Source of the DNA: Candidatus Binatia bacterium
Lineage (GTDB): Bacteria > Desulfobacterota > Binatia > DP-6
Length of the DNA: 64,000 bases
NCBI GenBank assembly: GCA_035295465.1
Contig: DATGIZ010000042.1
Span: 91,614 to 155,613 of the forward strand
Direction of reading: 5' to 3'
Positions within the stretch are counted from its first letter, which is position 1; each line of letters opens with the position of its first letter. Positions 3,789 through 58,334 of the stretch are shown piece by piece. Both the position numbers and the translations under genes were made by a program. The notes beneath the pieces are model-generated. The model was not told the DNA's origin and did no database searches. It saw only the letters and a program-made list of their open reading frames with translations.

Positions 3789-3793
3789 ACACG

Positions 3794-7208: not shown

Positions 7209-7307
7209 ACACGACGCATGGATCTCCCCCGTGCCCGGCTGGGCCGGGCGATCGATGATGGGGAGGCGTTTAGTCGCTGGCGGCTGGCGTGTAAAGGTCC
7301 GCGACGG

Positions 7308-22962: not shown

Positions 22963-23017
22963 GATCGACCGTGTAGCAGATCTGGTGCCGGCAGGCCCGC
23001 GGGGGGATAGTGGGCCC

Positions 23018-30365: not shown

Positions 30366-33300
30366 TCACCGGTAGTCGTGCTCGCCGGGCGGCGCGCCGG
30401 CCGCCTCGAGCCGTCGCAGCCGCTCGGCCCGCACGTGCGTCACGCCGTCGCGGCGCTCGAGGCGACCCGCCACCTCGATGAGCGGGGCCGTGTTGAGGAG
30501 CACGCGCCAGCGCTCGTAGAGCGGCGGGGTGAGGAACGCGTTCGCCGTCCCGGTCTCGTCCTCGAGCGTGAGGAAGCACATGCCCTTCGCCGTCCCCGGC
30601 CGCTGGCGGACGATCACGTGGCCGGCGACGCGGACCTGCCCGCCGTGCGGGACCCGGGCCAAGTCGCGCGTCGCGCACACGCCGGCGGCGGCGAGCCGCG
30701 AGCGCAGGTGCGCCATCACGTGCGGGCCCGTGGTGAGCTGCGTCGCCGCGTAGTCGGCGGCGGTCTCCTCGAGCGGGGTCATCGGCGCGAGCGGCGCCGC
30801 CGCCTCGGGGCGCACGTGGGCGAGCAGCGACGCCGGATCCCGCTCGGCGGCGGCCGCCTGCCAGAGCGCCGCGCGGCGCGCGAGCCCCAGGCCGGCGAAC
30901 GCGCCCGCGTACGCCAGCGCCTCGACCTCGTCGCGGGCGAGCTCGCCCGCCTGCGCCGCCTCGGCGACGCTCGCGAAGGGGCGCCGGGCGACGAGCCGCT
31001 CCGCCGCCTCCCGCCGCAGCCCGCGCACGTAGCGCAGGCCGAGGCGGACCGCGAGCCCGCTCTCGCCCGCCTCGAGCGTGCACTTCCACCGCGAGCGGCC
31101 GGCGTCGATCGGCCGGAAGACCACGCCGTGGCGCTCGGCGTCCTTCACCAGCGTCGCGGGGTGGTAGAACCCCATCGGCCAGCAGTTGAGCAGCGCGCAG
31201 ACGAAGGCCGCCGGATGGTGCGCCTTCAGGTACGCCGAGGCATAGGCGATCAGCGCGAAGCTCGCCGCGTGCGACTCGGGGAAGCCGTAGAGCGCGAACG
31301 ACGTGATGCTGCGCACGATGTCGTCCTGCACGGCGCCGGTGATGCCGCGCGCGGCCATACCGGCGCGCAGCCGCGCCTCGATCGCCGCCATGCGCTCGAC
31401 CGAGCGCTTGAAGCCCATCGCGCGGCGCAGCTCCTCGGCCTCGCCGCCGCTGAAGCCGGCGACCGCCATCGCGATCCGCAGGAGCTGCTCCTGGAAGAGC
31501 GGGACGCCGAGCGTGCGGGCGAGGATCGGCTCGAGCGCGGGGTGCGCGTAGGTGACCGGCGCGAGCCCGGCGCGGCGCCGGAGGTAGGGATGGACCATCT
31601 GCCCCACGATCGGCCCGGGGCGGATGATCGCCACCTCGACGACGAGATCGTAGAAGCGCGCCGGCTTGAGCCGTGGCAGCGTCGCCATCTGCGCGCGGCT
31701 CTCGACCTGGAAGACGCCGATCGTGTCGGCCTGTTGGAGCATCGCGTAGACCCTGGGGTCGTCCGGGGGGAGATGCGCGAGGTCGAGGTCGACCCCCTCG
31801 TGCGCCCGCACCAGCGGGAGCGCCTCCTCGAGCGCCGCCAGCATGCCGAGGCCGAGGAGGTCGACCTTGATGAGGCCCAAGTCGGCACAGTCGTCCTTGT
31901 CCCACTGGACGACGTGGCGGCCGGGCATCGCGGCGGGCTCGAGCGGGACGACCTCGTCGAGGCGGCCGGCGGCGATCACGAGGCCGCCGGTGTGCTGGCC
32001 CAGGTGTCGCGGCAGCCCTTGGATGCGGCGCACGAGGTCGACCAGCAGCGCGATGCGCGGCGCCGCCGGGTCGACGCCGCCGTGGCGGAGCTGCGCCGCG
32101 AGCTCGTCGTGCGCGTCGTGCCAGCCGTGCGCGCGCAGCAGCCTCGTGAGCCGGTCGACCTGCTCCGCCGCGAGGCCGAGCGCCTTGCCGACCTCGCGCA
32201 CGGCGCTGCGCGTGCGGTAGGTGACGACCGCGGCCGTCATGGCGGCTCCGCGCTCGCCGTAGCGGCGGTAGACGTACTGGATGACGTCTTCGCGGCGCTC
32301 CCCGCTCGGGAGGTCGAGGTCGATGTCCGGCCACTCCCCGCGCTCCTCGGAGAGGAAGCGCTCGAAGAGGAGGTCCATCGAGACCGCGTCGACGGCGGTG
32401 ATGCCGAGCGCGTAGCAGACCGCGCTGTTGGCGGCCGAGCCGCGGCCCTGCACGAGGATGCCGCGCTCTCGGCAGAAGCGGACGATGTCCCACACGATGA
32501 GGAAGTAGCCCGCGAGGCCGAGCCGCTCGATGACGCCGAGCTCGTGCGCGAGCTGGCGGCGGACGCGCGGGCCCGGCGGCCGCCAGCGCTCGCGCGCGCC
32601 CGCCTCCGTGAGGGCGCGCAGCCGGCCGATCGGCGTCTCGCCCGGCGGCAGCGCGGGCTCGGGGAAGCGGTAGCCCAAGTCGGCGAGCGTGAACGCGCAG
32701 CGCTCGGCGATCCGCCGGCTCGCGCGGATCCACGCGGGCCGGTCGCCGAAGAGCGCCGCCATCTCCGCGGGCGCCTTCAAGTGCCGCTCGGCGTTGGCGA
32801 GCAGCCGGCGGCCGGCGGCGTCGAGCGTCGTGCCCAGCCGGATGGCGGTGAGCACGTCGAGGAGCGGGCGCGCGCCGGGCGTGGCGTGGCGGACGTCGTT
32901 GGTGGCGACCACCGGCACGCCGTGGGCCTCGGCCAGGTCGGCGAGCCGGCGCATGGCGCGCTCCTCGGCGCGCTCGCGGTGGCGGTGGACGTCGACGGCG
33001 AGGCGGGCCGGGAAGAGCGCGCGCAGCCGGTCGAGGATCGCCGCCGCGTCGGGGCCGGCGAGCGGGCCGTCCGTGCCGCCGGCGAGGCAGAAGAGGCCGC
33101 CCGCGTGCTCTTCGAGCTGCGCCCAGTCGACCACGCCCGCGCCCTTCGGCCGTCCCATCGCGGCGTCGGTGAGCAGCCGGCAGAGGCGGCGGTAGCCGTG
33201 GCGGTCCTCGACCAGGAGGAGGATGGTGCCGCCGGCCGCGAGCGGGACCTCGGCGCCGACGAGCGCGCGCATGCCCGCGCGGCGCGCCGCCTGGAAGAAG

Positions 33301-33458
33301 CGCGGCGCGCCGTAGACGCCGCCGCGGTCGGCGAGCGCGAGCGCGTCGTAGCCGAGCGCCGCGGCGCGGTCGGCCAGGTCCTCGGGCAGCGAGGCACCGG
33401 TGAGGAAGCTGAAGGCGCTGCGGCAGCGCAGCTCGACGTAGTCAGTCGTAGACCCCAT
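30366..33458 (-). CDS. dnaE2: Error-prone DNA polymerase III alpha-subunit paralog DnaE2 (ImuC).
   Basis: The N-terminal PHP motif (YVELRCRSAFSFLTGAS), the approximately 1030-aa length, and the position downstream of imuA-imuB all fit. Confidence 0.9.
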   Translation of the reverse strand: MGSTTDYVELRCRSAFSFLTGASLPEDLADRAAALGYDALALADRGGVYGAPRFFQAARRAGMRALVGAEVPLAAGGTILLLVEDRHGYRRLCRLLTDAAMGRPKGAGVVDWAQLEEHAGGLFCLAGGTDGPLAGPDAAAILDRLRALFPARLAVDVHRHRERAEERAMRRLADLAEAHGVPVVATNDVRHATPGARPLLDVLTAIRLGTTLDAAGRRLLANAERHLKAPAEMAALFGDRPAWIRASRRIAERCAFTLADLGYRFPEPALPPGETPIGRLRALTEAGARERWRPPGPRVRRQLAHELGVIERLGLAGYFLIVWDIVRFCRERGILVQGRGSAANSAVCYALGITAVDAVSMDLLFERFLSEERGEWPDIDLDLPSGERREDVIQYVYRRYGERGAAMTAAVVTYRTRSAVREVGKALGLAAEQVDRLTRLLRAHGWHDAHDELAAQLRHGGVDPAAPRIALLVDLVRRIQGLPRHLGQHTGGLVIAAGRLDEVVPLEPAAMPGRHVVQWDKDDCADLGLIKVDLLGLGMLAALEEALPLVRAHEGVDLDLAHLPPDDPRVYAMLQQADTIGVFQVESRAQMATLPRLKPARFYDLVVEVAIIRPGPIVGQMVHPYLRRRAGLAPVTYAHPALEPILARTLGVPLFQEQLLRIAMAVAGFSGGEAEELRRAMGFKRSVERMAAIEARLRAGMAARGITGAVQDDIVRSITSFALYGFPESHAASFALIAYASAYLKAHHPAAFVCALLNCWPMGFYHPATLVKDAERHGVVFRPIDAGRSRWKCTLEAGESGLAVRLGLRYVRGLRREAAERLVARRPFASVAEAAQAGELARDEVEALAYAGAFAGLGLARRAALWQAAAAERDPASLLAHVRPEAAAPLAPMTPLEETAADYAATQLTTGPHVMAHLRSRLAAAGVCATRDLARVPHGGQVRVAGHVIVRQRPGTAKGMCFLTLEDETGTANAFLTPPLYERWRVLLNTAPLIEVAGRLERRDGVTHVRAERLRRLEAAGAPPGEHDYR

Positions 33459-34926
33459 CGACGAACCAGCGCGCCGAGTCGCATTCCCGGTAGCAGCGGT
33501 AGATGCCGCCGTCGGTGAGCTCCAGGTCCCAGTAGTCGCGCGCGAGCGGCGCCGCGCTCCACCACTGTGCGGCGATCCGCCATGGCCCCGCGGCGCCCAC
33601 GACCCGCCCGCCGAGCCCGTCGCCGCGCACGAAGGCGGGCGCGTCGCGCTCGGCGAACACCTCGATCGCGCGCGGCGGGCGCAGCGCGCGCACCACGAGG
33701 CGGCAGCAGGTCGCTGCGGCGGCGGGCGACCCCGGCGCGTCCGCCGGGGCGGGCGCGAAGGGCACGACGGCCGCCGCGCCGGGACGGTGCGTGTCGACCG
33801 GGGCGGGCGCGCCGACGCGGTCCGCGCCGCAGAGCGCGGAGAGCCGGGCGAGCGTGGTGGCGAGCCGCTCCGGCGCGGGGCCCGGAGGAACGAAGAGCCC
33901 GAGCTGGACGGGCCGCACCGTGGCGGGCACCACGACGAGCCGCACGTGCTCGACCGCCGCCCGCGGCGGCTGCGCCTCGATCGCGACGCGGAGACAGGCG
34001 AGGAGCGTCTTCCCGTCGCGCGTCGAGGCGGCGAGCGCGATCCCGCGCGCGTCGCGGCTGCGGTCGCCCAAGCCGAGCACGAGATCGACGCGCGCGCAGC
34101 CGGCGCCGGTGAGCGCGAGCCGGGCGACGGCCCGCTCGATCAGCCCGCGCAGCACGAAGAGCAGCGGCTCGAGCGCGTCGATCGGGTGCTCGAGCGTCGT
34201 CGTCTCCTCGACCGTGCCGTCCGCCGGCCGGGGAGCGAGCGGGCGCTCGTCCTCGCCGCGGGCGGCGGCGACGAGCGCGGCGCCGGCGCGGCCGAGCCGG
34301 GTGGCGACCTCGGCGCCCGGGAGGCGCGCGAGGTCGCCGAGACGCGCGACGCCCCAGCGCGCGAGCGTGGCGGTGACGTCGGCGGGCGGCGCGAGGCAGG
34401 CGAGCGGGAGCGGCGCCAGGAAGCCGCGCTCCGTCCCCGCCGGGACGACCTGTGCGCCGTCGCCGTGGAGGGCCGCCAAGCGGGCGACGGTCATGCTCGC
34501 GCCCACGCCCGCGCGCGCGGCGAGCCCGACGCGTGCCGCGCGGGCGACCAGCGCGGTGGCGAGCCCGGCTTCGCCGGCGACGAGATGGGCGCCGCCCGCG
34601 GCGTCGAGGAAGACGGCGCCGTCGGCCGCCACCTCGATCCGCTGCGCGAGCGAGGCCGCCACGTCGGCGAGCGCGAGCGCGGCCGAGCGCTCGCCGGCGA
34701 GGTCGCGCGGGCGGACGGCCACGTCGGCGGCCGCGGCGCGCGCCTGCGTGGCGGTCAGGCCGGGACGGATGCGGCGGGCCCGGGCCGCGGCCGAGACGGC
34801 GACGACCCGGGCGTGCGGCCCGCGCCCGTCGGTGAGGGCCAGCGGCCGGTCGGCGAGGTCGGGATCCGCGCGGCAGGCGGCGGCGACGGCGAGATCGGGA
34901 ACCAGGACGCAGGCGATGCGCGGCAT
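33442..34926 (-). CDS. imuB: ImuB, a Y-family polymerase-like mutasome subunit.
   Basis: It has a UmuC-like N-terminus (MPRIACVLVPDLAVAAACRADPDLADRPLALTD...). It overlaps the dnaE2 start by 17 nt and sits 12 nt after imuA. Confidence 0.85.
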   Translation of the reverse strand: MPRIACVLVPDLAVAAACRADPDLADRPLALTDGRGPHARVVAVSAAARARRIRPGLTATQARAAAADVAVRPRDLAGERSAALALADVAASLAQRIEVAADGAVFLDAAGGAHLVAGEAGLATALVARAARVGLAARAGVGASMTVARLAALHGDGAQVVPAGTERGFLAPLPLACLAPPADVTATLARWGVARLGDLARLPGAEVATRLGRAGAALVAAARGEDERPLAPRPADGTVEETTTLEHPIDALEPLLFVLRGLIERAVARLALTGAGCARVDLVLGLGDRSRDARGIALAASTRDGKTLLACLRVAIEAQPPRAAVEHVRLVVVPATVRPVQLGLFVPPGPAPERLATTLARLSALCGADRVGAPAPVDTHRPGAAAVVPFAPAPADAPGSPAAAATCCRLVVRALRPPRAIEVFAERDAPAFVRGDGLGGRVVGAAGPWRIAAQWWSAAPLARDYWDLELTDGGIYRCYRECDSARWFVDGVYD

Positions 34927-34938
34927 CGGACGCGCTCC

Positions 34939-35607
34939 TCACGCACAGGCCTGCCTCACGACGAACACCTGTCCCGACGGCCCGACCCGGCTCAGCGCAA
35001 CCGTGATCCGCGCCTCGATGCCGTCGAGCAACGCGAGCCGCCCCGGGCCGCCGCTCCAGCGCACCCGCCGCGCCGTCGTCTCGAGGGCGAGCGCCGCCCC
35101 CGATCCCGCCACCCGCTCGGGAGCGACGACGAGCAGCGTGCTGCGTGTCGCGGCCGCCGCCCGCGCGAGCCGCAACGCGCGCTCCCGCGGCACGCGCGGC
35201 GTGTCGAGGTCGAGCACGACCAGCCCGAAGCCGCCGGCGCCGAGCAGCACCTCGGCGGCCCGCAACGCGTCGAGCGGGGCAGGGGGCCGGACCCAGAGCG
35301 TGCGGTCGAGCCGCACGCCCGCGGCGGCGAGGGCCTCGGGGTCGAGCGCGTCGGCCGGGTCGACCCAGGCGATCGTCTCGCCCGCCCGCGTGGCGCTCGC
35401 CGCCACGTGCGCGGCGAGCCCCGTGCGCCCCGTGCTTCGCGGCCCCACCAGCTCGGTCATCCGCCCGCGCGGCAGCCCGCCGCCGAGCGCCCGGTCGAGG
35501 GCCGCGAGCCCGACCGGCAGGCGGCGGACCGCCCCGGCGGGCTCCGTCCCGAGGCGCAGGCTCCCCGGCCTGCCGAGCCGATCGAGGAGAACGGCGGCGG
35601 CGGACAT
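34939..35607 (-). CDS. imuA: ImuA, a RecA/SulA-fold mutasome component.
   Basis: It has the pattern LPVGLAALDRALGGGLPRGRMTELVGPRSTGRTGLAAHVAA...IAWVDPADALDPEALAAAGV and sits first in the imuA-imuB-dnaE2 order. Confidence 0.75.
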   Translation of the reverse strand: MSAAAVLLDRLGRPGSLRLGTEPAGAVRRLPVGLAALDRALGGGLPRGRMTELVGPRSTGRTGLAAHVAASATRAGETIAWVDPADALDPEALAAAGVRLDRTLWVRPPAPLDALRAAEVLLGAGGFGLVVLDLDTPRVPRERALRLARAAAATRSTLLVVAPERVAGSGAALALETTARRVRWSGGPGRLALLDGIEARITVALSRVGPSGQVFVVRQACA

Positions 35608-37976: not shown

Positions 37977-38720
37977 GTGGCGGGCGAGCTCGCGGGGCGC
38001 TGCGCCGTGGTGACGGGCGCGTCGAGCGGCATCGGGGCGGCGGCTGCGCGGGCGCTCGCACGCGCCGGGGCCGCGCTGGTGCTCGGCGCGCGGCGCGCCG
38101 AGCGGCTCGACGCGCTCGCCGCCGAGCTGCGTGCGGCGGGCGCCGCGGTGGCGACGCGGCGGACCGACGTGCGGCGCGAGGAGGACGTGGTCGGGCTCGT
38201 CGCGCTCGCGCGCGAGCGCTTCGGCGGCGTCGACGTGCTCGTCAACAACGCGGGGCTCGGCCGGGCCGCGCCGGTGAGCAGCGCGCCGACGGAGCCCTGG
38301 CGCGAGATGCTCGAGGTGAACGTGCTCGGGCTGCTGATCGCCACCCGCGAGGCGATCCGCGACATGGAGCGTCGCGGCGTGGCCGGCCACGTGGTGAACG
38401 TCGCCTCGATGGCGTCCCACCGCGTACCCGGCCCGGACGCGGCGGTCTACGCCGGGACCAAGTTCGCGGTGCGGGCGATCACCGAGGGGCTGCGCCAGGA
38501 GCTGCGCGCGCGCCGGAGCCCGATCCGCGTCTCGGCCGTGTCGCCGGGGCACGTCGAGACGGAGTTCGCCGAGGGGTTCTCGGGGTCGAGCGAGGTGTAC
38601 CGCCGCCTGAAGGCGCTCGCGGCCGACGACGTCGCCGCCGCGATCGTCTGGATCGTGACCCGCCCGGCCCACGTCGAGGTCCACGACGTGCTCGTGCGCC
38701 CGACGGCGCAGCGGAACTGA
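37977..38720 (+). CDS. Short-chain dehydrogenase/reductase (SDR).
   Basis: It has the cofactor-binding motif TGASSGIGAAAARALA, the NNAG motif and a YAGTK catalytic motif. The start is GTG. Confidence 0.85.
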   Translation: MAGELAGRCAVVTGASSGIGAAAARALARAGAALVLGARRAERLDALAAELRAAGAAVATRRTDVRREEDVVGLVALARERFGGVDVLVNNAGLGRAAPVSSAPTEPWREMLEVNVLGLLIATREAIRDMERRGVAGHVVNVASMASHRVPGPDAAVYAGTKFAVRAITEGLRQELRARRSPIRVSAVSPGHVETEFAEGFSGSSEVYRRLKALAADDVAAAIVWIVTRPAHVEVHDVLVRPTAQRN

Positions 38721-38815: not shown

Positions 38816-40264
38816 ATGGGCGCATCCGGCCGTGTCGTGATGGTGTCGCATCGCGCACCGGTGGAGGTCGAGCCCGACGGGGGCGGCGGGCGCATGAAGC
38901 GCACCGTTGGCGGCCTCGCCACGGCGCTCACCGACGCGCTGCGCGCGCCGGGTGGCACGTGGGTGGCGTGGGCCGGCGAGGCCGCCCCCGACGTGCTCGT
39001 GCCGGACGCCACCGGGCTCTCGTTCCCGATCCGCGCCGTGCCGCTCGACCGGCACGAGATCGACAACTACTACGCGGGGTTCGCCAATCAGGTCCTCTGG
39101 CCGCTCTGTCACATCTTCCCCGACCGCTGCCACTTCAGGCCCGCCTTCTGGGAGTCCTATCAGCACGCCAACGAGCGCTTCGCCGGCGCGGTCCGCGCGG
39201 AGGTCCGCCGCGGCGACCTCGTGTGGGTGAACGACTTCCACCTCTGCCTCGTCCCGGGCCTGCTGCGGGCGAGCGCGGTGCCCGCGCGCCTGGGCATCTT
39301 CTGGCACATCCCCTTCCCGCCGCCGGCGGTCTTCGGCATCTGCCGCTGGCGGGCCGAGCTGCTCGCCGGCCTGCTCGGCGCCGACGTCATCGGGCTGCAG
39401 ACCGCCGCCGACGCCCGCAACTTCGCCGCGTGCGTCCGGCAGTTCCTCGAGCTGCCGATCCTCGACGACCCGCTGCGGGTGCGGCTGCCGGGCCGCGACG
39501 TGCACCTGCTCGTCCTGCCGGTGGGCGTCGACGCCGCCCGCTTCCGCGCCCAGGCGGCCGACCCCGCGATCCGCGAGCAGGCCGCACGCGTGCGCGCCAA
39601 CCTGGGGACGGACCTCGTCTGCCTCGGCGTCGATCGCCTCGACTACACCAAGGGCATCATCGAGCGGCTGCTCGGCTTCGAGGCGTTCCTCGAGCGGCAT
39701 CCTTCGTGGCGAGGCCGGGTGGGCCTCCTCCAGATCACCGTACCCTCCCGCTTCCGCGTGCCCGACTACCGCGACATGAAGCGCACCATCGACGAGACCG
39801 TCGGCCGCATCGTCGGTCGCTTCACGCACGAGGGGCGTGCACCGCTCGCCTACCTCTACACGGCGTTCGACCACGAGGAGCTGGCGGCCTACTATGTCGC
39901 CGCCGACGTCGCGCTGGTCACTCCGCTGCGCGACGGCATGAACCTGGTCGCGAAGGAGTACGTCGCCTGTCACGCCGGCGGGGACGGTGTGCTCGTCCTT
40001 TCGGAGTTCGCGGGCGCCGCCGACGAGCTGCGCGAGGCCCTGCTCGTCAACCCGTGGGACGCGCAGACGATCCGCCGCCAGATCGACCTGGCCGTGACCA
40101 TGACCGACGGCGAGCGGCGCCGGCGCATGGGCGCGCTCGCGGCGAGGGTGTGCGCCCGCGACGTGCGCTGGTGGGCGGCCGCTTTTCTCGCGGCGCTCGC
40201 CGACGGCGCGGATGCTTCTCCGGAGGCGCGGCACGACGACCTCGAGCTGCCGGGCCTCGCCTGA
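38816..40264 (+). CDS. otsA: Trehalose-6-phosphate synthase (GT20, OtsA).
   Basis: The N-terminus RVVMVSHRAPV...GGLATAL...WVAWAGE parallels E. coli OtsA (RLVVVSNRIAP...GGLAVGIL...WFGWSGE). GT20 blocks are present (…YYAGFANQVLWPLCH…WVNDFHL…). Confidence 0.85.
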   Translation: MGASGRVVMVSHRAPVEVEPDGGGGRMKRTVGGLATALTDALRAPGGTWVAWAGEAAPDVLVPDATGLSFPIRAVPLDRHEIDNYYAGFANQVLWPLCHIFPDRCHFRPAFWESYQHANERFAGAVRAEVRRGDLVWVNDFHLCLVPGLLRASAVPARLGIFWHIPFPPPAVFGICRWRAELLAGLLGADVIGLQTAADARNFAACVRQFLELPILDDPLRVRLPGRDVHLLVLPVGVDAARFRAQAADPAIREQAARVRANLGTDLVCLGVDRLDYTKGIIERLLGFEAFLERHPSWRGRVGLLQITVPSRFRVPDYRDMKRTIDETVGRIVGRFTHEGRAPLAYLYTAFDHEELAAYYVAADVALVTPLRDGMNLVAKEYVACHAGGDGVLVLSEFAGAADELREALLVNPWDAQTIRRQIDLAVTMTDGERRRRMGALAARVCARDVRWWAAAFLAALADGADASPEARHDDLELPGLA

Positions 40265-40270
40265 CGCCGC

Positions 40271-40942
40271 ATGCCCTCGGTCGCCTCTGCGCCCTTCCAG
40301 TTCCGGACGCGCCTCACCCTTACCAAGCTCACCGGCCGGCAGGCGGCGGATCTCCCCCAGCTCGTCGGCCACCTGCGGGCCGTGCCGCTGTCGGTGGTCT
40401 TCCACCACACGCACCACTTCCTCGTCCAGCACCTCCACCTCTCGCCCGAGCCGCCCAACGACTTCGCCTTCTGGGTGACCAACGTGCTCCAGGAGGACCA
40501 GCTCGGCGAGCAGCTCGCGGCGATCGACACCGTCGGATTCGCGACGCTCGCGGCGCTGCGCGACCGGATCGTGGCCGTGATCGAGGCCTACCTCGAGCAG
40601 AGCCGCTCGCTGCGCGAGGCACCCCCCGGCGAGGAGTTCCACTTCCGCGACGGCATTTCCTTCGTGCTGCCGACGGCTTATCGCGTCCGCACGCTCGAGG
40701 AGTTCGCCGAGGCGCTGCGTGCGGTCGGCGCGGCGACCATCGCCTACCACCTCTTCGAGGCGCGGCTGCGGCTCGGCGCCGACGACAACGACTTCTCGCG
40801 CTGGCTCGAGCAGGCGCTCGGCGAGCGCGAGGCCGCGGCGGCGATCCGCCGCCTCGATCCGTACACGTTCACGATGGAGGGCCTGCGCCGGCGGCTGATC
40901 GAGCTGGTCGCGCCGGGGCCGGCGGGCCGGGGCGCGCGGTGA
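40271..40942 (+). CDS. Hypothetical protein (223 aa) between otsA and treT; possibly DUF5752-like.
   Basis: It starts 6 nt after otsA and ends in a GTGA overlap with treT. It is His-rich near the N-terminus (VVFHHTHHFLVQHLHL). GC3 is high. Confidence 0.5.
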   Translation: MPSVASAPFQFRTRLTLTKLTGRQAADLPQLVGHLRAVPLSVVFHHTHHFLVQHLHLSPEPPNDFAFWVTNVLQEDQLGEQLAAIDTVGFATLAALRDRIVAVIEAYLEQSRSLREAPPGEEFHFRDGISFVLPTAYRVRTLEEFAEALRAVGAATIAYHLFEARLRLGADDNDFSRWLEQALGEREAAAAIRRLDPYTFTMEGLRRRLIELVAPGPAGRGAR

Positions 40943-42165
40943 CGGTGGGGCTCGACGACTACGAGCCGTTCGTCGGGCGCGGCACCCTCGACGAGCTGCG
41001 GCTGCTCGGCAAGGCGCTGCACGGCCGGCGCGTCCAGCACGTCAACTCGACCGCGGTCGGCGGCGGGGTCGCCGAGATCCTCACGCGGCTCGTGCCCCTG
41101 CTGCGCGAGCTCGGCGTGGAGACCCGCTGGGACGTCATCCACGGCGGCGAGGAGTTCTTCGCGGTGACCAAGAAGCTCCACAACGCGCTGCACGGCCAGC
41201 CGCTCGTCTTCGACGCCCGCGACGCGGAGGTCATGCGCGAGACCACCGCCGAGAACCTCCGCAGTCTCGACCTCGGCCCGGACATCGTGTTCATCCACGA
41301 TCCGCAGCCGGTCGAGCTGGTCGCCGGCGCGCCGAGGGGCTCGCGCTGGCTCTGGCGCTGCCACATCGACGTCTCGGCCCCGGCGCCGTCGGCGTGGGAG
41401 TTCCTGCAGCCGTGGGTGGAGCGCTACCGGGCCGCGGTCTTCTCCGCGCCGCAGTTCGCCCGTCCGCTCTCGATCGACCAGGTGCTGATCGCGCCGTCGA
41501 TCGACCCGCTCACCGAGAAGAACCGCGAGCTCGACGCGGCGACGATCGCCAAGGTCGTCACCGGGCTCGGCATCGACCCCGAGCGCCCGCTCGTCACGCA
41601 GGTCTCGCGCTTCGATCGCCTGAAGGACCCGCTCGGCGTGATCGAGGCGTACCGTCTGGTGCGCCGCTACAACGACTGCCAACTGCTGCTCGTCGGCGGC
41701 TCGGCCACCGACGACCCCGAGGGGAGCCAGGTGCTCGCGGAGTGCCGCGCGGCCGCAGCGGACGATCCCGACGTGCACGTCGTCGAGCTGCCGCCGACGG
41801 CGAACCTCGAGATCAACGCGCTCCAGCGGGCGTCGACGGTGATCGTGCAGAAGTCGCTGCGCGAAGGGTTCGGGCTCACGGTCGCCGAGGCGCTGTGGAA
41901 GGGCAAGCCGGTGGTCGCCGGCGCGGTGGGCGGCATCCCGCTCCAGGTCACGCACCGCTACTCGGGCATCCTCACGCACACGATCGAGGGCTGCGCCTAC
42001 TGGCTCAAGCAGCTCCTCAACGCCCCCGAGTTCGCCCGCCGCCTCGGCGAGAACGGGCGCGAGCACGTGCGCAACAACTTCCTGATGACCCGTCATCTCC
42101 GCGACTACATGCTGCTCTTCCTCTCGCTCGACCACCCCGGCGAGAGCCTGGTGCGTCTCGGCTAG
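40939..42165 (+). CDS. treT: TreT-like GT4 glycosyltransferase (trehalose glycosyltransferring synthase).
   Basis: The N-terminus GTLDELRLLGKALHGRRVQHVNSTAVGGGVAEILTRLVPLLRELGVETRWDVIHGGEEFFAVTKKLHNALHG closely parallels archaeal TreT (…RILHINSTSFGGGVAEIL…LVPLLRS…FFEITKKIHNALQG). There is also a C-terminal GT4 E-x7-E-like region. Confidence 0.75.
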   Translation: MTVGLDDYEPFVGRGTLDELRLLGKALHGRRVQHVNSTAVGGGVAEILTRLVPLLRELGVETRWDVIHGGEEFFAVTKKLHNALHGQPLVFDARDAEVMRETTAENLRSLDLGPDIVFIHDPQPVELVAGAPRGSRWLWRCHIDVSAPAPSAWEFLQPWVERYRAAVFSAPQFARPLSIDQVLIAPSIDPLTEKNRELDAATIAKVVTGLGIDPERPLVTQVSRFDRLKDPLGVIEAYRLVRRYNDCQLLLVGGSATDDPEGSQVLAECRAAAADDPDVHVVELPPTANLEINALQRASTVIVQKSLREGFGLTVAEALWKGKPVVAGAVGGIPLQVTHRYSGILTHTIEGCAYWLKQLLNAPEFARRLGENGREHVRNNFLMTRHLRDYMLLFLSLDHPGESLVRLG

Positions 42166-42797
42166 ACGGCGGCCTGCCGGGCGAGGAACGCCGCGGTGCG
42201 TTCCCACATGGGCTCGAGCACCTCGGTGAGCTCGTGGCCCGCGTCGAGCACGACCAGTTCCCGGTTCGGTCTTGCGGCAGCGAAGCGCTCGACGGCGGCG
42301 AGCGGCACCGCGTCGTCGCGCCGGCCGGCGAAGACGAGCGCGGGACAGGGGGGATCGGGCCAGGCGGGATGCGCGCGCGCGTCGTCGAGGAGGGCGATCG
42401 CCAGCGGGACCTCGCGCCCGAGGCCGTAGTGCATCACCGGCGTCGTGCCCGCGGCGCGCCAGCGGGCGAGCGCCGCCGACCCGAGGCGCTCTTCCCAACG
42501 CCGGGCGAAGTCGAACGCCGGCGCGAAGAGCACGAGGGCGGGCACGCGCGCGGGCGCACGCGCGGCGGCGAGCGCGGCGAGGTAGCCGCCGAGGCTCGAG
42601 CCGAGCAGCACCGTCGGCGCCTGCGCGAGCAGCGGCTCGACGATCCCGAGCATGCCGCTCACCGTGACGTGGGTGAAGTCGGGGGCGAGGTCGGGGACCG
42701 CGAGCGCGAGCCCGCGCTCGGCCAAGCGGGCGCGGAAGAACCGCGCCTTCGTGCTCGCCGGGCCCGAGGCGAAGCCGTGGAGGTAGGCGGCGGTCAC
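42162..42797 (-). CDS. Alpha/beta-hydrolase, YqiA-like esterase.
   Basis: Pattern: MTAAYLHGFASGPASTKA...LLGSSLGGYLAA...GHEL. Confidence 0.65.
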   Translation of the reverse strand: MTAAYLHGFASGPASTKARFFRARLAERGLALAVPDLAPDFTHVTVSGMLGIVEPLLAQAPTVLLGSSLGGYLAALAAARAPARVPALVLFAPAFDFARRWEERLGSAALARWRAAGTTPVMHYGLGREVPLAIALLDDARAHPAWPDPPCPALVFAGRRDDAVPLAAVERFAAARPNRELVVLDAGHELTEVLEPMWERTAAFLARQAAV

Positions 42798-42804
42798 GCG
42801 GCGC

Positions 42805-46148: not shown

Positions 46149-48655
<2,507 letters not shown>

Positions 48656-48656
<1 letters not shown>

Positions 48657-49495
48657 TGGCGGCGGCACGCGCGGTCCGCGTGGGCCCCGTCCGCGTCGGC
48701 GGCGGGGCGCCGCTCGCGCTGATCGCCGGGCCCTGCGTGATCGAGTCGCGCGACGCGGCGCTGCGCCACGCCGAGCGCCTGGCCGCGCTCGCCGCCCGCG
48801 CCGGGCTCCCGCTCGTCTACAAGTCGTCCTTCGACAAGGCCAACCGCACCGCGCTCGACGCGTTCCGCGGGGTCGGCCTCGACGCGGGGCTCGCGATCCT
48901 CGCCGAGGTGCGGCGCGAGCACGGGCTGCCCGTGCTCACCGACGTCCACGAGCGCGAGCAGATCGCGGCCGTGGCCGCGGTCGTCGACGTGCTCCAGACC
49001 CCGGCCTTTCTCTGCCGGCAGACCGACTTCATCCGGGCGGTCGCGGCGGCGGGCAAGCCGGTGAACTTGAAGAAGGGGCAGTTCCTCTCGCCGTGGGAGA
49101 TGGCGCGCGTGGTGGAGAAGGCCCGCTCGACGGGCAACCCCGACGTGCTCGTGACCGAGCGCGGGTTCATGCTCGGCTACAACAACCTGGTCGCGGACAT
49201 GCGCGCGCTGCCCGTGCTCGCCGAGACCGGCTGCCCGGTAGTGTTCGACGCGACGCACAGCGTGCAGCGCCCCGGTGGGCTCGGCAGCGCGTCGGGCGGC
49301 GACCGGGTCTTCGTGGCGCCGCTTGCCCGCGCGGCGGTCGCCGCCGGGGTCGACGCGGTCTTCCTCGAGGTGCACGAGGACCCCGCGCACGCGCCCTCCG
49401 ACGGCCCCACGAGCGTGCCGCTCGACGCGCTGCCGGCGCTGCTCGCGCAGCTCGTCGCCGTCGACCGCGCGGTGCGCGGGCGGGGCGCGCCGTGA
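48656..49495 (+). CDS. kdsA: 2-dehydro-3-deoxyphosphooctonate aldolase (Kdo8P synthase).
   Basis: Motifs: …[10 protein letters not shown]…[12 protein letters not shown]…VFDATHSVQ… The GTG start overlaps the last base of the pyrG stop. Confidence 0.9.
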
Positions 49496-50487
49496 GCGCC
49501 GAGCGCCTCGGCCGCGCGCGGCGCGTCCTCGAGCTCGAGGCGCGCGGCCTCGCGGCGCTGCGCGATCGGCTCGACGAGCGCTTCGCGCGCGCGATCGACG
49601 TGCTGGTCGCGTGCCGCGGCAAGGTGATCCTCACCGGCGTCGGCAAGTCGGGCATCGTCTGCCGCAAGATCGCCGCCACCTTCGCCTCGACCGGGACGCC
49701 GGCCTTCTTCCTGCACGCCGGCGAGGGCAGCCACGGCGACCTCGGCAGCCTCGAGCGGGGCGACGTGCTGGTCGCGGTCTCGTACACCGGTGAGAGCGAA
49801 GAGGTGCTGCGCCTGCTGCCGGTCGCACGCCGCCTCGGCATCCCGCTGATCGCGCTCTGCGGCGCGCCGGACTCGACGCTCGCCCGCAACGCCGACGTCG
49901 CGCTCGACGTGAGCGTGCCCGAGGAGGCCTGCCCGCTCGGGCTCGCGCCCACCGCGAGCACGACGGCCACCATGGCCATGGGCGACGCGCTCGCGGTGGC
50001 GCTCTTCGAGGAGCGCGGCTTTTCGGCCGAGGACTTCGCGCTCCTCCACCCCGCCGGCGCGCTCGGCCGGCGGCTGCGCCGCGTCGAGGACCTGATGCAC
50101 CGGGGCGACGCCGTGCCGCTCGTGCCGGCGGACGCGTCGCTCAAGGACACGCTCGTCGAGATGACGTCGAAGCGCCTCGGCGTCACCGGGGTGGTGGACG
50201 CGGCCGGCGAGCTGATCGGCGTCGTCACCGACGGCGACCTGCGCCGCGGCCTCGAGCACGCGGGCGACGTCCGGACGCTCACGGCGCGCGACTTGATGAC
50301 GCGCTTCCGCCGCGCGGATCGCAGCGGGGAGCCGCCCAAGACGATCGCGGCCGGGGCGCTCGCGGCCGAGGCGGTGGCGGTGATGGAACGCCACAAGATC
50401 ACCTCGCTCTTCATTCTCGCCGACGGGACACGGCGCCCGCTGGGGGTCATCCACCTCCACGACCTCCTGCGAGCGGGCATCGTCTGA
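49492..50487 (+). CDS. kdsD: Arabinose-5-phosphate isomerase (SIS plus tandem CBS domains).
   Basis: Motifs: …[33 protein letters not shown]…; two CBS domains are present. It has a GTGA overlap with kdsA. Confidence 0.9.
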
Positions 50488-50492
50488 CGCTC

Positions 50493-51482
50493 GTGGCCCC
50501 GGCTCCGCCCAGGCGGCGTACCCTCTGGCGCCGGCTGCGCCGGGCGACGCGCGGTCCGCGCAACGCGGCGCTCGCGCGCGCCATCTACGGGAGCGCGCGC
50601 GCTCTCGGCGCGCTGCCGATCCCGCTGGCGCTCGGCGTGGGGCGCGCGCTCGGTGCCGGCGCCCACGCGCTCCTCGCCCGCGACCGGCGCCTCGCGCTCG
50701 CCCACGTCGCGGCGGCGTTCCCGGAGCTGGCGCCGCCGGCGCGCGACGCGCTCGTGCGGGAGACCTTCCGCCACGCCGGGCAGTCGTTCGCCGAGCTGGC
50801 GCTCTGGCCCCGGCTCGTCCACCGGCCAGGCTGGATCGACGTGACGGGACGGGAAGCGGCCGACGCGGCGCTGGCCGGGGGCCGTGGCGCCATCGCGGTC
50901 ACGGGCCACGTCGGCAACTGGGAGCTGCTCGCCGCCACGATGGCGCAGTGCTACCCGCTCACGGTGGTCGCCCGGCGGGTGAACGACGCCCGCTTCGACG
51001 CCCTGATCGTGCGCTTCCGCCGGGCGGCGGGCGTCGAGATTTTGGTGCGCGACGACACGCGCTTTTTCGCGGGGGTGCGCGACGCGCTCGGTCGCAACCG
51101 CATCGTGGCGCTGCTGATCGACCAGGACACGCGCGGGGCCGGCGTGTGGGTGCCCTTCTTCGGGCGGCCCGCACGCACCCCGGCCGGCGCGGCCGTGCTC
51201 GCGCTGCGCCTGCGCGCGCCGCTGCTCACGGCGTTCATCGAGCGGCGGGACGACGGCCGCCACCTCGTCCGCATCGCGTCGGTCGCGGCGCCCGCCGACG
51301 GCGGGCGCGGGCGGATCGGGGCGCTCACCGTCGCGCTCACCGCGGCGATCGAGGCGCAGATCCGCCGTGCGCCGGCGCAGTGGGTCTGGTGGCACGAGCG
51401 CTGGCGCCGGCAGCCGGGCGAGGCCGATTCACCTTTACTCCCGCCGGGGTGCGTGGTACCTGTGTCGGCGGCCAGGGAATAG
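50493..51482 (+). CDS. Lipid A biosynthesis late acyltransferase (LpxL/HtrB family).
   Basis: The family NX4H-like motif is in ITGHVGNWELL. Its position after kdsD and before lptC also fits. Confidence 0.7.
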   Translation: MAPAPPRRRTLWRRLRRATRGPRNAALARAIYGSARALGALPIPLALGVGRALGAGAHALLARDRRLALAHVAAAFPELAPPARDALVRETFRHAGQSFAELALWPRLVHRPGWIDVTGREAADAALAGGRGAIAVTGHVGNWELLAATMAQCYPLTVVARRVNDARFDALIVRFRRAAGVEILVRDDTRFFAGVRDALGRNRIVALLIDQDTRGAGVWVPFFGRPARTPAGAAVLALRLRAPLLTAFIERRDDGRHLVRIASVAAPADGGRGRIGALTVALTAAIEAQIRRAPAQWVWWHERWRRQPGEADSPLLPPGCVVPVSAARE

Positions 51483-51484
51483 CC

Positions 51485-52075
51485 ATGCGCAGGACACGGG
51501 TGCGCGCCGCGTTGCTGGTCGTGGTGGCCACCGCCCTCGCCGGCATCGGGTACGAGGTCTCCCGCAGCGTCGCGGCCCGGCACGCGCGCACGCCGCTCGA
51601 CCTCGGCGCCGACTTCCTACCGGAGGCCGCGCAGCACATCCAGACCTTCAAGCGGATCAAGGTCGAACGCGGGCGAACGGTGTGGGAGATCACGGCGGAC
51701 GATGCGCGCTACTTCGAGAAGCAGGACGGGATCGTCGTGCGCGAGCCGCGCGTCACGCTCTTCCTCGAGAGCGGGCGTCAGGTGCACATCCGAGGCACCG
51801 AGGGCCAGCTCGGGCTCGAAGGCGGCCACGACCTGCGTACGTTCATGCTGCGGGGTGAGGTGGTCGTGCAGCTCGACGACCTCGAGCTGCACACCGACCA
51901 GGCGACCTACACCCGCGCGAACGATCTCATCACCGCCCCGGGCGCGGTCACGATCCATGGCAAGACCCTCGACGTGTGGGGCACGGGCATGGAGGTGGAG
52001 GTGACGCCGCAGAAGATCCGCCTCCTGCGCGACGTGAAGACCCGGGTGCGAGGGGCCGATGCTGCCACGTCGTGA
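51485..52075 (+). CDS. lptC: LPS export system protein LptC.
   Basis: It has an N-terminal TM anchor and a periplasmic beta-jellyroll-like region, and sits immediately upstream of lptA-lptB. Confidence 0.6.
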   Translation: MRRTRVRAALLVVVATALAGIGYEVSRSVAARHARTPLDLGADFLPEAAQHIQTFKRIKVERGRTVWEITADDARYFEKQDGIVVREPRVTLFLESGRQVHIRGTEGQLGLEGGHDLRTFMLRGEVVVQLDDLELHTDQATYTRANDLITAPGAVTIHGKTLDVWGTGMEVEVTPQKIRLLRDVKTRVRGADAATS

Positions 52076-52754
52076 GCTGCTGGCCGTGCTCCTGTCGCTG
52101 AGCGTGCTCGCCGCCCGCGCGGACGCGGCGCCCGCGAACGACGCGGCGACGGCGCCGGGCAGCCCGGGCCTCTTCGACCTGGGCGGCGTCGGCCACTCGA
52201 AGGAGCCGATCACGGTCACCTCCGACCGGCTCGACTACGACTACAAGGCGAACGTGGTCGTGTATCGGGGCAACGTCGAAGCGGTGCAGGGGCAGGCGAC
52301 GCTCAAGAGCGACACGCTGACGGTCACGTTCGAGAACGACAAGACGAACGACAAGCCGGCCGCGGGCGCGGTCGCCGACCCGCCGCCGGCGTCCGCCAAG
52401 AAAGCGCCCAGCGCGGACCCCGGCGACAAGGGGACGAGCCGGGTGAAGGAGATCGTGGCGGTCGGCAGCGTGCGCATCGACCAGGGCACGCGTTGGGCGA
52501 CCGGCGGCCACGCGGTCTTCGACCAGGGCACGCGCACCGTCGTGCTCACGGAGAACCCGGTGCTTCACGACGGGCCGAACGAGGTCGCAGGCGATAAGGT
52601 CATCGTCTACCTCGACGAGAACCGCAGCGTGGTCGAGGGCGGACGCAAGCGCGTGAAGGCGGTGATCCACCCGGGCACCAACGCGACGAACACCGCGGCG
52701 AGCGCGGCCGGCGGCACGGCGGCGGCCCCGGCGGCGGAGGTCGCGCACCCGTGA
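52059..52754 (+). CDS. lptA: LPS transport periplasmic protein LptA (OstA-N domain).
   Basis: It has a signal peptide, the OstA-like pattern ([23 protein letters not shown]…TLKSDTLTV…) and an Ala-rich tail. Confidence 0.7.
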
Positions 52755-53506
52755 ACGCCAACGGGCAGGGCAACGGGCGCGATCGCGCGATCCTCCGCGG
52801 CGAGCACCTCACCAAGCGTTACGGCGGGCGGTGCGTGGTGAACGACGTCTCGGTCGAGGTGCGGGCCGGGGAGGTGGTCGGGCTGCTCGGCCCGAACGGC
52901 GCGGGGAAGACGACGACGTTCTACATGATCGTCGGGCTCGCGCGCCCCGACTCCGGGCACGTCTTCCTCGACGGCGCGGACATCACGACGCTGCCGATGT
53001 ACGAGCGCGCACGCCGCGGGGTCGGCTACCTGCCGCAGGAGCCGTCGGTGTTCCGCAAGCTCAGCGTCGAGGAGAACCTGCTCGCGATCCTCGAGACGCT
53101 CGACTTGACGGCGGCCGAGCGCCGCCAGCGGCTGGCGGCGCTGCTCAGCGAGCTCGGCATCACGCGGGTGGCGAAGAGCAAGGCGTTTTCCTTGTCCGGT
53201 GGCGAGCGGCGGCGGGTCGAGATCAGCCGTGCGCTGGTGATCTCGCCGTCGTTCATCCTGCTCGACGAGCCCTTCGCGGGCATCGATCCGATCGCCGTGG
53301 TTGACATTCAGGGCATTGTGACTCAGTTAAAAGAACGCGGTATCGGAGTTCTCATCACGGACCACAACGTGCGCGAAACGCTCGGGATCTGCGATCGGGC
53401 GTACATCCTGAACGAGGGCACCGTGCTCGAGGAGGGTGTCCCCTCCCACATCGCCGCGAGCCGCCAGGCGCGGGAGATCTACCTCGGTGAGAAGTTCCGC
53501 CTGTGA
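52751..53506 (+). CDS. lptB: LPS export ABC transporter ATP-binding protein LptB.
   Basis: It has Walker A (GPNGAGKTT), the ABC signature (LSGGERRRV) and Walker B ([11 protein letters not shown]). Confidence 0.9.
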
Positions 53507-53524
53507 GCGGGCGAGTCTGAGCTG

Positions 53525-54991
53525 ATGGCCGCCGAGACCCGCATCGTCCTCCAGCAACGGCTGTCGCAGCAGCTCGTGATGACGCCGCAGCTCCGGCAGG
53601 CGATCAAGATCCTGCAGGTGTCGCGCGCGGAGCTCGAGACGCTCATCGACCAGGAGCTGGCGGAGAACCCGGTTCTCGAGGAGAACGCCGACGAGAAGGC
53701 CGAGGCGGAAGCCGAGGTCCCCACCGTCGACGGCAACGGCACCGAGGAGTACCAGACCGCCGCCGACGGCGAGCACGAGGCGCAGAGCGTCGGCGAGATC
53801 GACTGGAAGGAGTTCGCCGAGAACTACGCGAACGACATGCACGGCGGTACGGGCGGCAGCGCCCCCGACGACGACGACGAGCGGCGCCCCGCGCTCGAGA
53901 ACATCCTCGTCAAGCGCACGCTGCTTCCCGAGCACCTCATGTGGCAGCTCCGGCTCACCGACCTCTCCGCCGAGGAGCGCGAGCTGGGCGCGCTCATCAT
54001 CGGCAGCCTCGACCCCGACGGGTACCTCACGCTCTCGCTCGAGGAGATCGCCTTCCTCGCCAACACCTGGCCGGACATCGCCGCCGTCGAGCGCGTGCTG
54101 CGCCGGATCCAGGAGTTCGACCCGCCCGGGGTCGCGGCGCGCGACCTCGCGGAGTGCCTGCTCACGCAGCTGCGCCAGCTCGGGCTCGATGCGGATTCGT
54201 TGCCTGCGCGCATCGTCCGCGACCATCTCGCGATGCTCGAGAGCCGCCGCTTCGATCGTCTAGCGCGCGATCTCGGCGTCGCGATGGAGCAGATCGCCGA
54301 GGCCACGAAGATCATCTCGGTGCTCGAGCCCAAGCCCGGCCGCGACTTCGGCGACGGCGAGACCCGCTACGTGACGCCCGACGTCTACGTGCACAAGGTC
54401 GGCGACGAGTACGTGGTCACGCTCAACGAGGAAGGGCTGCCGCGGTTGCGCGTGTCGCAGTTCTACCGCCGCATGCTCGGCGGTGAGGGGTCGGCCGAGG
54501 CCCGGGGCTACATCCAGGAGAAGATGCGGGCCGCCGCCTGGCTCATCAAGTCGATCCATCAGCGCCAGCGCACGCTCTACATGGTCACCTCGAGCATCGT
54601 GAAGTTCCAGCAGGAGTTCCTCGACAAGGGCGTGGCGCAGCTCCGGCCGCTGGTGCTCAAGGACGTCGCCAACGACATCGGGATGCACGAGTCGACCGTG
54701 AGCCGCGCGACGGCGGGCAAGTACGTCCATACCCCCCAGGGCACGTTCGAGCTCAAGTACTTCTTCACCTCGAGCCTCCGTAGCGGGCACGGCGAGGAGG
54801 TTTCGGCAGAGAGCGTGAAGGAGAAGATCCGCACGATCATCGCCAAGGAGGACCCGAAGAAGCCGCTGAGCGACCAGTACATCGCCGAGATGCTGGCCAA
54901 GGAGCAGATCGACATCGCGCGGCGCACGGTCGCGAAGTACCGCGAGCTGATGGGGATACTCCCGTCCTCGAAGCGCCGCCAGGTGTGCTGA
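53525..54991 (+). CDS. rpoN: RNA polymerase sigma-54 factor.
   Basis: It has an N-terminal Gln/Leu-rich activator-interacting region, an acidic linker, and the C-terminal RpoN box ARRTVAKYRE. Confidence 0.95.
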   Translation: MAAETRIVLQQRLSQQLVMTPQLRQAIKILQVSRAELETLIDQELAENPVLEENADEKAEAEAEVPTVDGNGTEEYQTAADGEHEAQSVGEIDWKEFAENYANDMHGGTGGSAPDDDDERRPALENILVKRTLLPEHLMWQLRLTDLSAEERELGALIIGSLDPDGYLTLSLEEIAFLANTWPDIAAVERVLRRIQEFDPPGVAARDLAECLLTQLRQLGLDADSLPARIVRDHLAMLESRRFDRLARDLGVAMEQIAEATKIISVLEPKPGRDFGDGETRYVTPDVYVHKVGDEYVVTLNEEGLPRLRVSQFYRRMLGGEGSAEARGYIQEKMRAAAWLIKSIHQRQRTLYMVTSSIVKFQQEFLDKGVAQLRPLVLKDVANDIGMHESTVSRATAGKYVHTPQGTFELKYFFTSSLRSGHGEEVSAESVKEKIRTIIAKEDPKKPLSDQYIAEMLAKEQIDIARRTVAKYRELMGILPSSKRRQVC

Positions 54992-55019
54992 CGCATCCCT
55001 CGGCGGAGGGGAGGGGGCG

Positions 55020-55571
55020 ATGCAGATCAGCGTCACGTTCCGGCACGTCGACCCCACGCCGGCGCTCCGCGCCTACGCCGAAGAGAAGCTCGAACGGGTG
55101 AAGAAGTACCTTCGCCGGCCGGTCGACGCCCACGTCATCCTCGGCGTCACCAAGGAGCGGCACACGGCGGAGATCACCCTCCAGGCGGACCACGTGACGA
55201 TGTTCGCCAAGGAGGAGACGCACGACCTCTATTCGGCGATCGACCTCGCCGTGGACAAGCTCGAGCATCAGGCGCAGAAGCTCAAGGCGAGGCGGCGCGA
55301 TCACAAGGACCAGGCGAGCGTGCGCTCGGGCGAGCTGCCGACGGTCACCACGACCGTGCTCTCGGTCGCCCGCGGTGCGCCGACGGTCGTTCGCACGCAA
55401 CGCCTGCCGGCGCGGCCGATGCTCGTCGAGGAGGCGCTCGACGAGCTGGCCGCGTCCCGCGAGGAGTGCGTGGTGTTCGTCAACGCGCGGAGCCAAACGC
55501 TCGCGGTCCTCTATCGGCGCAAGGACGGCGACTACGGGTTGATCGAGCCGGAGGGCTTCAGCGGACCATGA
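55020..55571 (+). CDS. hpf: Ribosome hibernation-promoting factor (long HPF).
   Basis: The sequence MQISVTFRHVD… is HPF/YfiA-like and carries a C-terminal extension. Confidence 0.85.
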   Translation: MQISVTFRHVDPTPALRAYAEEKLERVKKYLRRPVDAHVILGVTKERHTAEITLQADHVTMFAKEETHDLYSAIDLAVDKLEHQAQKLKARRRDHKDQASVRSGELPTVTTTVLSVARGAPTVVRTQRLPARPMLVEEALDELAASREECVVFVNARSQTLAVLYRRKDGDYGLIEPEGFSGP

Positions 55572-57842: not shown

Positions 57843-57906
57843 CGCGGCCGCGCGCGCCGCCGCGGCTTGCTCGCCCCCCCGTGGGGAAGGTAGGGTTTTC
57901 GCCGGG

Positions 57907-58326: not shown

Positions 58327-58334
58327 GGCCGGCC

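Follow-up and report, generated by a model that had tools for sequence, protein, structure and literature searches.

The DUF5752/OrfY gene between otsA and treT in a Candidatus Binatia bacterium: a conserved companion of treT with a candidate accessory or regulatory role

Trehalose is a widespread stress protectant. The enzyme OtsA makes trehalose-6-phosphate from nucleoside diphosphate (NDP)-glucose and glucose-6-phosphate, and TreT forms trehalose itself in one step from NDP-glucose and glucose. The window analysed here, a stretch of 64,000 nucleotides (nt) of contig DATGIZ010000042.1 from a Candidatus Binatia bacterium, encodes homologues of both enzymes with a protein of 223 amino acids (aa) between them, and the question that this locus raises is what the middle protein does. 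A first-pass annotation of the same DNA had regarded it as a possible novel phosphatase, a regulator or a partner of TreT. Here, we report that the protein belongs to the DUF5752/OrfY family and that its gene is followed directly by treT in every related locus retrieved. We lean, with some reserve, towards a role as a dedicated and non-catalytic accessory or regulatory subunit of TreT, tuned to the cell's osmotic or sugar state. At the window locus, the already known orfY-treT pair appears in a bacterial (Candidatus Binatia) version joined to otsA. The cluster consists of the following features:

38816..40264, + strand: otsA, encoding a probable trehalose-6-phosphate synthase of glycosyltransferase family 20 (GT20), 482 aa, without a fused phosphatase domain (PF00982)
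40271..40942, + strand: gene of a DUF5752/OrfY-family protein, 223 aa (PF19027)
40939..42165, + strand: treT, encoding a predicted GT4 trehalose glycosyltransferring synthase of the Thermoproteus type, 408 aa (TreT_GT1 and Glycos_transf_1)
40939..40942, + strand: GTGA stop/start overlap between the DUF5752 gene and treT, a signature of translational coupling (direct reading)

These genes are tightly packed. By direct reading, otsA opens with an ATG at 38816 behind a Shine-Dalgarno-like GGGGGAG and closes with a TGA ending at 40264. The ATG of the DUF5752 gene follows at 40271 after six bases (cgccgc), and the TGA of this gene (40940-42) overlaps the GTG start of treT at 40939 (gGTGAc). The gene order, the 6-nt gap, the 223-aa reading frame and the GTGA overlap given in the first-pass annotation were exact in their coordinates and junctions, and public gene calls on two copies of the contig gave identical proteins of 482, 223 and 408 aa. 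A scan of positions 37800-43000 for promoters and terminators found none and is uninformative at the GC content of the window, about 74%.

How widely is this arrangement kept? One genome per species was scanned with the patterns PEP[PA]NDFA and HTH[HR][FY]L[VQE]QH and a close 13-sequence alignment as seed, and at least 560 DUF5752 relatives were detected. Eighty loci were retrieved, from Binatia, Omnitrophota, Elusimicrobiota, Planctomycetota, Bacteroidota, Margulisiibacteriota, Aminicenantes and others, and this set is biased towards members in which the HTHHFLxQH and PEPPNDFA motifs are preserved. A TreT homologue with 52-82% identity to the window TreT was encoded directly downstream of DUF5752 in 80/80 loci. 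The distance from the DUF5752 stop to the treT start lay between -50 and +9 nt in 72 of the 75 loci in which it could be measured; the commonest values were +1 (17 loci) and -4 (16 loci), and most loci fell between -17 and +5 nt. Cluster composition was counted in the 46 loci with sufficient flanking DNA. Here otsA was present in 39 loci and a canonical trehalose phosphatase gene in 38, with both found in 37, usually in the order otsA-otsB-DUF5752-treT. Two loci had otsA without otsB, like the window, and six consisted of DUF5752-treT with neither. The constant treT adjacency and the variable presence of otsA and otsB identify DUF5752-treT as the conserved core, often supplemented by otsA and otsB; in the loci examined DUF5752/OrfY was never without an adjacent treT and is its obligate genomic companion. 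Of the three-gene unit whose conservation had been put forward as a check, the DUF5752-treT pair was kept in all 80 loci and otsA in 39 of the 46 counted.

Mechanosensitive channels of the MscS type recur around the pair and were encoded close to it in 9 of the 46 loci. For example, a Bacteroidota locus (L034) has a split form with MscS, DUF5752, treT and otsB in succession. One further locus (L088) holds a second DUF5752 copy, which is again followed by a second treT and sits behind an MscS-like membrane protein. The surrounding region of this locus (248-9977) contains an alpha-amylase-family gene (possibly TreS-like), GT4/GT5 glycogen-synthase-like genes, a maltokinase-like-DUF5752 fusion, treT, a GT2 gene, the MscS-like protein and the second DUF5752-treT pair, and is a dense trehalose/alpha-glucan/osmoregulation island.

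What kind of protein is DUF5752? The middle protein matched the Pfam family DUF5752/OrfY (PF19027) over nearly its whole length (6.6e-63; 212.3 bits against a cut-off of 23; residues 7-213 on positions 2-207 of the 208 in the model), as the author of the first-pass annotation had guessed in proposing a profile search. The description "uncharacterised" thus stands as regards function, but not as regards family, which is a known one with a crystal structure. That structure, PDB 4CSO, is of OrfY from Thermoproteus tenax, dates from 2014 and was the sole solved match (E 2e-34 with a profile of close homologues, 1e-29 with the single sequence); the middle protein is homologous to it in sequence and in fold. 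A literature search on DUF5752, OrfY, 4CSO and unidirectional TreT found no relevant paper.

The protein is built from an internal tandem duplication, its N-terminal and C-terminal halves aligning over 103 columns (hhalign probability 99.8%, E 4.4e-29), and BLAST cross-matches between the halves of different DUF5752 members confirmed the duplication. In the predicted model each repeat of about 105 residues forms a long beta-hairpin followed by five helices. The conserved elements are placed as follows:

40271..40606, + strand: repeat 1, residues 1-112, with the beta-hairpin F9-x-F11, H46, N63-D64-F65-x-x-W68 and R97 (hhalign and conservation)
40607..40918, + strand: repeat 2, residues 113-216, with F123-x-F125, H160 and N173-D174-F175-x-x-W178 (hhalign and conservation)
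40403..40474, + strand: the most conserved segment of the family, residues 45-68, HHTHHFLVQHLHLSPEPPNDFAFW, with a local His cluster (motif conservation)

Across 137 diverse DUF5752 domains, archaeal and fused ones included, the residue pairs F9/F123, F11/F125, H46/H160, D64/D174, F65/F175 and W68/W178 were invariant or nearly so, and the most conserved stretch can be written as the family pattern HHTHHFLVQHxxLSPEPPNDFAxW. Inside this stretch, residues 50-60 form a loop at which the predicted local distance difference test score (pLDDT) of the model falls below 50; conservation combined with low model confidence is a pattern typical of a partner- or ligand-binding element, which this loop may be. 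The protein had been described as His-rich. This is so locally, in HHTHHFLVQHLH, where most of the 9 His among the 223 residues are found, but the overall content of 4.0% equals the family median, and the only family-invariant His are H46 and its repeat equivalent H160. Judged by the model, the DUF5752 fold is an orphan, a unique two-repeat fold, and it showed no resemblance to the known cytoplasmic domains of MscS. A candidate similarity to DeoR/WYL was rejected as insignificant (E 0.025-0.066), and it had no structural counterpart.

The partner gene was assigned with less difficulty. Its product, described at first as a TreT-like GT4 synthase, carries the TreT_GT1 N-terminal domain (PF21269, 3.9e-52) and the GT-B C-terminal domain Glycos_transf_1 (PF00534, 1.6e-20), which bears that description out. 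Residues 6-397 aligned with PDB 6ZJ4 (E 5.7e-118), deposited as "trehalose phosphorylase/synthase" and which we take to be the Thermoproteus TreT, and an end-to-end alignment was obtained with the deposited TreT chains 2X6Q (E 1.7e-100), presumably from Pyrococcus horikoshii. The score against NF041139 (TreT_Thcocales), 361.9 bits, was below the trusted cut-off of 775; since this model is specific to Thermococcales by its name, the score places the window treT outside that subgroup and not outside TreT. By its domains and its end-to-end similarity to solved TreTs the gene product is identified as TreT, with its activity and directionality being predictions.

Is the middle protein, then, the phosphatase that the OtsA pathway appears to lack? 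The first gene probably encodes a trehalose-6-phosphate synthase, as originally proposed, judging from a full-length GT20 domain (Glyco_transf_20, PF00982, 2e-128) and from the best solved relatives, which are mycobacterial and fungal OtsA/Tps1 proteins at about 1e-96; the solved OtsA/Tps1 matches include 5JIJ (1.1e-96) and 1UQT (4.4e-83). Its TIGR02400 score of 499.2 bits is below the equivalog cut-off of 564.85, and a glucosylglycerol-phosphate synthase model scored far lower, 331 against a cut-off of 569. The initial claim of a window without otsB proved right: the best E that nine trehalose-phosphatase queries from related clusters, one of which came from a close relative, reached by tblastn in the 64 kb was 0.019, and Trehalose_PPase (PF02358) was absent from the Pfam scans and tables of essentially all window genes. 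The sole HAD-superfamily hydrolase in the window lies about 21 kb from the cluster at 63003-63656 on the - strand (DVDNT motif; PF00702, 6.5e-10). It belongs to a family other than Trehalose_PPase; dephosphorylation of trehalose-6-phosphate by it is conceivable in principle, and nothing ties the gene to the cluster.

The absence of otsB, the 6-nt spacing of the DUF5752 gene from otsA and the invariant His and Asp residues could together suggest that DUF5752 is a new trehalose-6-phosphate phosphatase that replaces OtsB and completes the OtsA pathway. We give this explanation hardly any credence. A canonical Trehalose_PPase gene accompanies DUF5752 in 38/46 loci, one representative protein (P0192) has Trehalose_PPase fused to DUF5752, and DUF5752-treT pairs occur without any otsA, the Thermoproteales loci included. 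Nor did the model of the middle protein resemble a HAD, histidine-phosphatase or other phosphatase fold, so that the fold search suggested in the first-pass annotation turned out negative, and the marks of OtsB itself (HAD fold, DxDxT motif, PF02358) were not found in the protein. Among the functions first considered, gene context strongly supports a partner or regulator of TreT, and the co-occurrence with otsB together with the fold speaks against a novel phosphatase. Within the window's own clade, otsB of three close relatives (L006, L007 and L091) lies upstream of otsA in divergent orientation, while in another locus (L009) it is placed between otsA and DUF5752. The possession of otsA without otsB is thus a minority rearrangement, in which otsB has moved away from the cluster in this lineage, and the window locus is an ordinary member of its family, notable solely for that departure. 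These data remove a tempting but wrong annotation of the middle gene as the missing phosphatase. In L091, which is on the same contig as L006 and whose DUF5752 is 71% identical to the window protein, otsB (7493-8300, - strand) is split by a frameshift and the public call is a 115-aa Trehalose_PPase fragment; the frameshift is probably an assembly error and not the sign of a pseudogene, the metagenome-assembled genome (MAG) being putatively long-read by its name.

Further evidence comes from domain fusions. An exhaustive HMMER search gave 764 representative DUF5752 clusters, the best 150 of which were examined for architecture, and 20 of these 150 were longer than a single DUF5752 domain. Fourteen had an MscS transmembrane part and beta-domain (PF00924) followed by DUF5752, and three had a maltokinase-like kinase in front of it: P0206, with Mak_N_cap and an HGDYHLGQ motif, P0168, which is 48% identical to P0206 over the full length, and the truncated P0200. 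The remaining three were the Trehalose_PPase-DUF5752 protein mentioned above, a protein with a short N-terminal extension without assignment (P0132) and an apparent DUF5752-TreT fragment (P0157). The last, a metagenomic sequence of 309 aa, was rejected as a true DUF5752-TreT fusion, its middle being garbled and its TreT part truncated, and is probably a frameshifted or fragmentary gene call. The MS_channel_3rd (alpha-beta) domain was not detected in the 14 MscS-DUF5752 proteins, so DUF5752 occupies its position. For three fused genes the context was examined, one MscS fusion (P0124) and two maltokinase-like fusions (P0206 and P0168), and treT was the next gene in all of them, after a gap of 9 nt for MscS-DUF5752 and with a 4-nt overlap for the maltokinase-like-DUF5752 genes. 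From fusions and context together, the N-terminus of DUF5752 is seen to be joined to varied partners in trehalose metabolism or osmolarity, and its C-terminal neighbour is always TreT.

These observations also bear on whether DUF5752 is an enzyme in its own right. With H46/H160 and D64/D174 invariant and accompanied by aromatics typical of carbohydrate-active sites, the protein could be an enzyme of new fold for a TreT-coupled step, such as the supply of glucose or NDP-glucose or the modification or hydrolysis of trehalose; its invariable association with a sugar transferase, together with its fusions to trehalose and maltose enzymes, is reminiscent of multi-enzyme fusions. We consider such an enzyme unlikely. 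The predicted model was unlike any known enzyme fold, and a domain at the C-terminus of MscS fusions would more typically serve sensing or regulation. TreT also seems to do without help: Thermoproteus TreT enzymes are reportedly active alone in vitro, and close TreT homologues have solved structures as stand-alone proteins. Catalysis without a partner favours regulation over the role of an essential catalytic subunit.

If DUF5752 regulates, it might do so at the level of transcription, and the depositors of 4CSO named it "OrfY protein, transcription factor". A pseudo-dimeric protein of two repeats could recognise DNA, and regulators are often encoded beside their targets, here the treT (and otsA) operon. 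Several properties fit poorly with such a DNA-binding factor. The isoelectric point is near neutral (6.3, with a family median of 6.25), and no helix-turn-helix, winged helix-turn-helix, ribbon-helix-helix or similar DNA-binding fold was recognisable in the middle protein. DNA binding is also hard to square with a domain that is repeatedly fused to sugar kinases and to heptameric membrane channels at their cytoplasmic end. The stop/start overlap with treT implies near-stoichiometric synthesis, which is atypical of regulators. The literature search gave no paper to back the deposited label. We regard a transcription factor as an improbable identity for this protein.

An accessory or regulatory subunit of TreT is therefore the role that we prefer for DUF5752, and it may work in the following way. 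Translational coupling would cause DUF5752 to be made in step with TreT, which it would then bind; once bound, it could tune the activity or location of TreT in line with the cell's osmotic or sugar state, and so couple TreT to turgor sensing and trehalose turnover. Physical binding of the two proteins is suggested by the coupling signature and the invariant gene order. A regulatory and non-catalytic role, as regulator or adaptor, is what we infer from the stand-alone structures of TreT homologues and from the sensor-like manner in which the domain appears to act on channels. A link to osmotic conditions and MscS is likewise suggested by the fusions to MscS channels and maltokinase-like kinases, which would connect TreT with turgor sensing and trehalose turnover. 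More speculatively, the His/Asp/Phe/Trp sets, one invariant set per repeat, may form a pseudo-symmetric sugar site, conceivably one that holds the symmetric trehalose molecule across the pseudo-dyad.

A number of points weigh against this proposal. The invariant His/Asp pairs might just as well belong to a catalytic or metal site, and the depositors' label for OrfY is at odds with a TreT-binding subunit. We know of no ligand of DUF5752/OrfY. The strict treT adjacency could reflect a shared pathway step and not a complex, and no natural full-length DUF5752-TreT fusion was present among the best 120 matches to a concatenated query, all of which were plain TreTs of about 408 aa. Finally, scans of the window genes revealed no MscS channel gene, and any channel link would thus be unable to act in cis at this locus.

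A more far-reaching version, possible but in our opinion doubtful, makes DUF5752 a turgor- or osmolyte-coupling adaptor, that is, a pseudo-symmetric sensor that binds trehalose or a precursor and docks or signals TreT to MscS channels. If so, solute synthesis and solute release would come under one physical module, either fused to the channel or free-standing as in the window, and DUF5752 would found a new class among the regulatory subunits of sugar-synthesising glycosyltransferases and also add a new accessory domain to MscS channels. On how cells switch the TreT route, the comparative data provide a concrete and testable hypothesis, namely that DUF5752 binds TreT as a regulator or adaptor linked to osmosensing.

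The closest known counterpart is the orfY-treT pair of T. tenax and other Thermoproteales. In T. tenax, orfY reportedly lies upstream of the gene for a unidirectional TreT, and an orfY-treT cluster is said to be conserved in archaea and a few bacteria. The T. tenax protein shares with that of the window the Pfam family DUF5752 and the two-repeat architecture. Homologues retrieved with the 4CSO sequence from Pyrobaculum ferrireducens and Thermoproteus MAGs had DUF5752 directly upstream of a Thermoproteus-type treT with the same 4-nt overlap as in the window, and in Pyrobaculum an MscS gene is located divergently upstream of the pair. Unlike the crenarchaeal T. tenax pair, the window pair is bacterial and embedded in Binatia DNA of about 74% GC, and it has been combined with a GT20 otsA, a gene absent from the Thermoproteales loci. 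The window TreT resembles the solved TreTs (2X6Q and 6ZJ4) in its end-to-end alignment and in carrying PF21269, and differs from the Thermococcales TreT in its NF041139 score (362 against 775 bits). The Thermococcales treT presumably sits in a trehalose/maltose ABC-transporter cluster without orfY.

Other comparisons are less direct. The cluster shares a GT20 OtsA homologue with the OtsA/OtsB pathway, and most related clusters have otsA-otsB ahead of DUF5752-treT; it differs in its want of otsB and in an OtsA just below the TIGR02400 cut-off. The domain also has a parallel in MscS channels with C-terminal sensor domains, in that DUF5752 follows directly after the beta-domain in 14 of the best 150 of the 764 representatives, whereas the window protein is stand-alone and without a transmembrane part. 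A precedent, by analogy, for a partner-regulated trehalose synthase may be found in the msc-gt-tpsp operon of T. tenax. There, the trehalose synthase TPSP is activated by forming a complex with a partner protein, the operon also encodes a mechanosensitive channel, and a model of osmotic stress joining trehalose synthesis and release has been put forward (Zaparty et al. 2013, PMC3634074). DUF5752-treT loci likewise recruit or fuse MscS genes. The components differ, however, the T. tenax activator being a GT4 glycosyltransferase and its target a fusion of trehalose-6-phosphate synthase and phosphatase (TPS-TPP) where DUF5752 and TreT are found here, and the T. tenax operon includes an MscS-type channel gene, of which the window has none.

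Two genes adjoin the cluster in the window:

37977..38720, + strand: SDR oxidoreductase, upstream flank (adh_short, 7.7e-52)
42162..42797, - strand: alpha/beta-hydrolase, UPF0227/YqiA-like, convergent flank (PF05728, 3e-21), its 3' end overlapping that of treT by 4 nt

In the 80 related loci no counterpart of the SDR gene adjoined the cluster, one distant match in L026 excepted, and the alpha/beta-hydrolase had no match in any of them. Both are flanking genes outside the conserved unit.

Elsewhere in the window, a few further genes were observed:

2919..3734, + strand, and 9423..10772, - strand: two well-coded reading frames of 271 and 449 aa, respectively, with zero Pfam matches
3794..7219, - strand: protein of 1141 aa with a Big_1 Ig-like domain as its sole Pfam domain
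22829..25327, + strand: family-B DNA polymerase with DNA_pol_B and exonuclease domains
30366..35607, - strand: SOS mutagenesis cassette of the imuA-imuB-dnaE2 type, encoding a RecA_N-like protein (222 aa), a Y-family IMS polymerase (494 aa) and a DnaE2-like Pol III alpha subunit (1030 aa)
46249..58622, + strand: kdsB, pyrG, kdsA, kdsD, lpxL-like, lptC, lptA, lptB, rpoN, hpf, ptsN (EIIA-Ntr), hprK, rapZ, EIIA-Man and HPr, apparently co-directional
63653..64000, - strand, at the end of the window: LexA-like Peptidase_S24 fragment

The family-B polymerase reading frame overlaps the upstream part of a reading frame for a hybrid histidine kinase/response regulator (24717/24945-27629), and the start codons of both are uncertain for this reason. 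The block at 46249-58622 looks like an ordinary rpoN/nitrogen-phosphotransferase system (PTS) neighbourhood.

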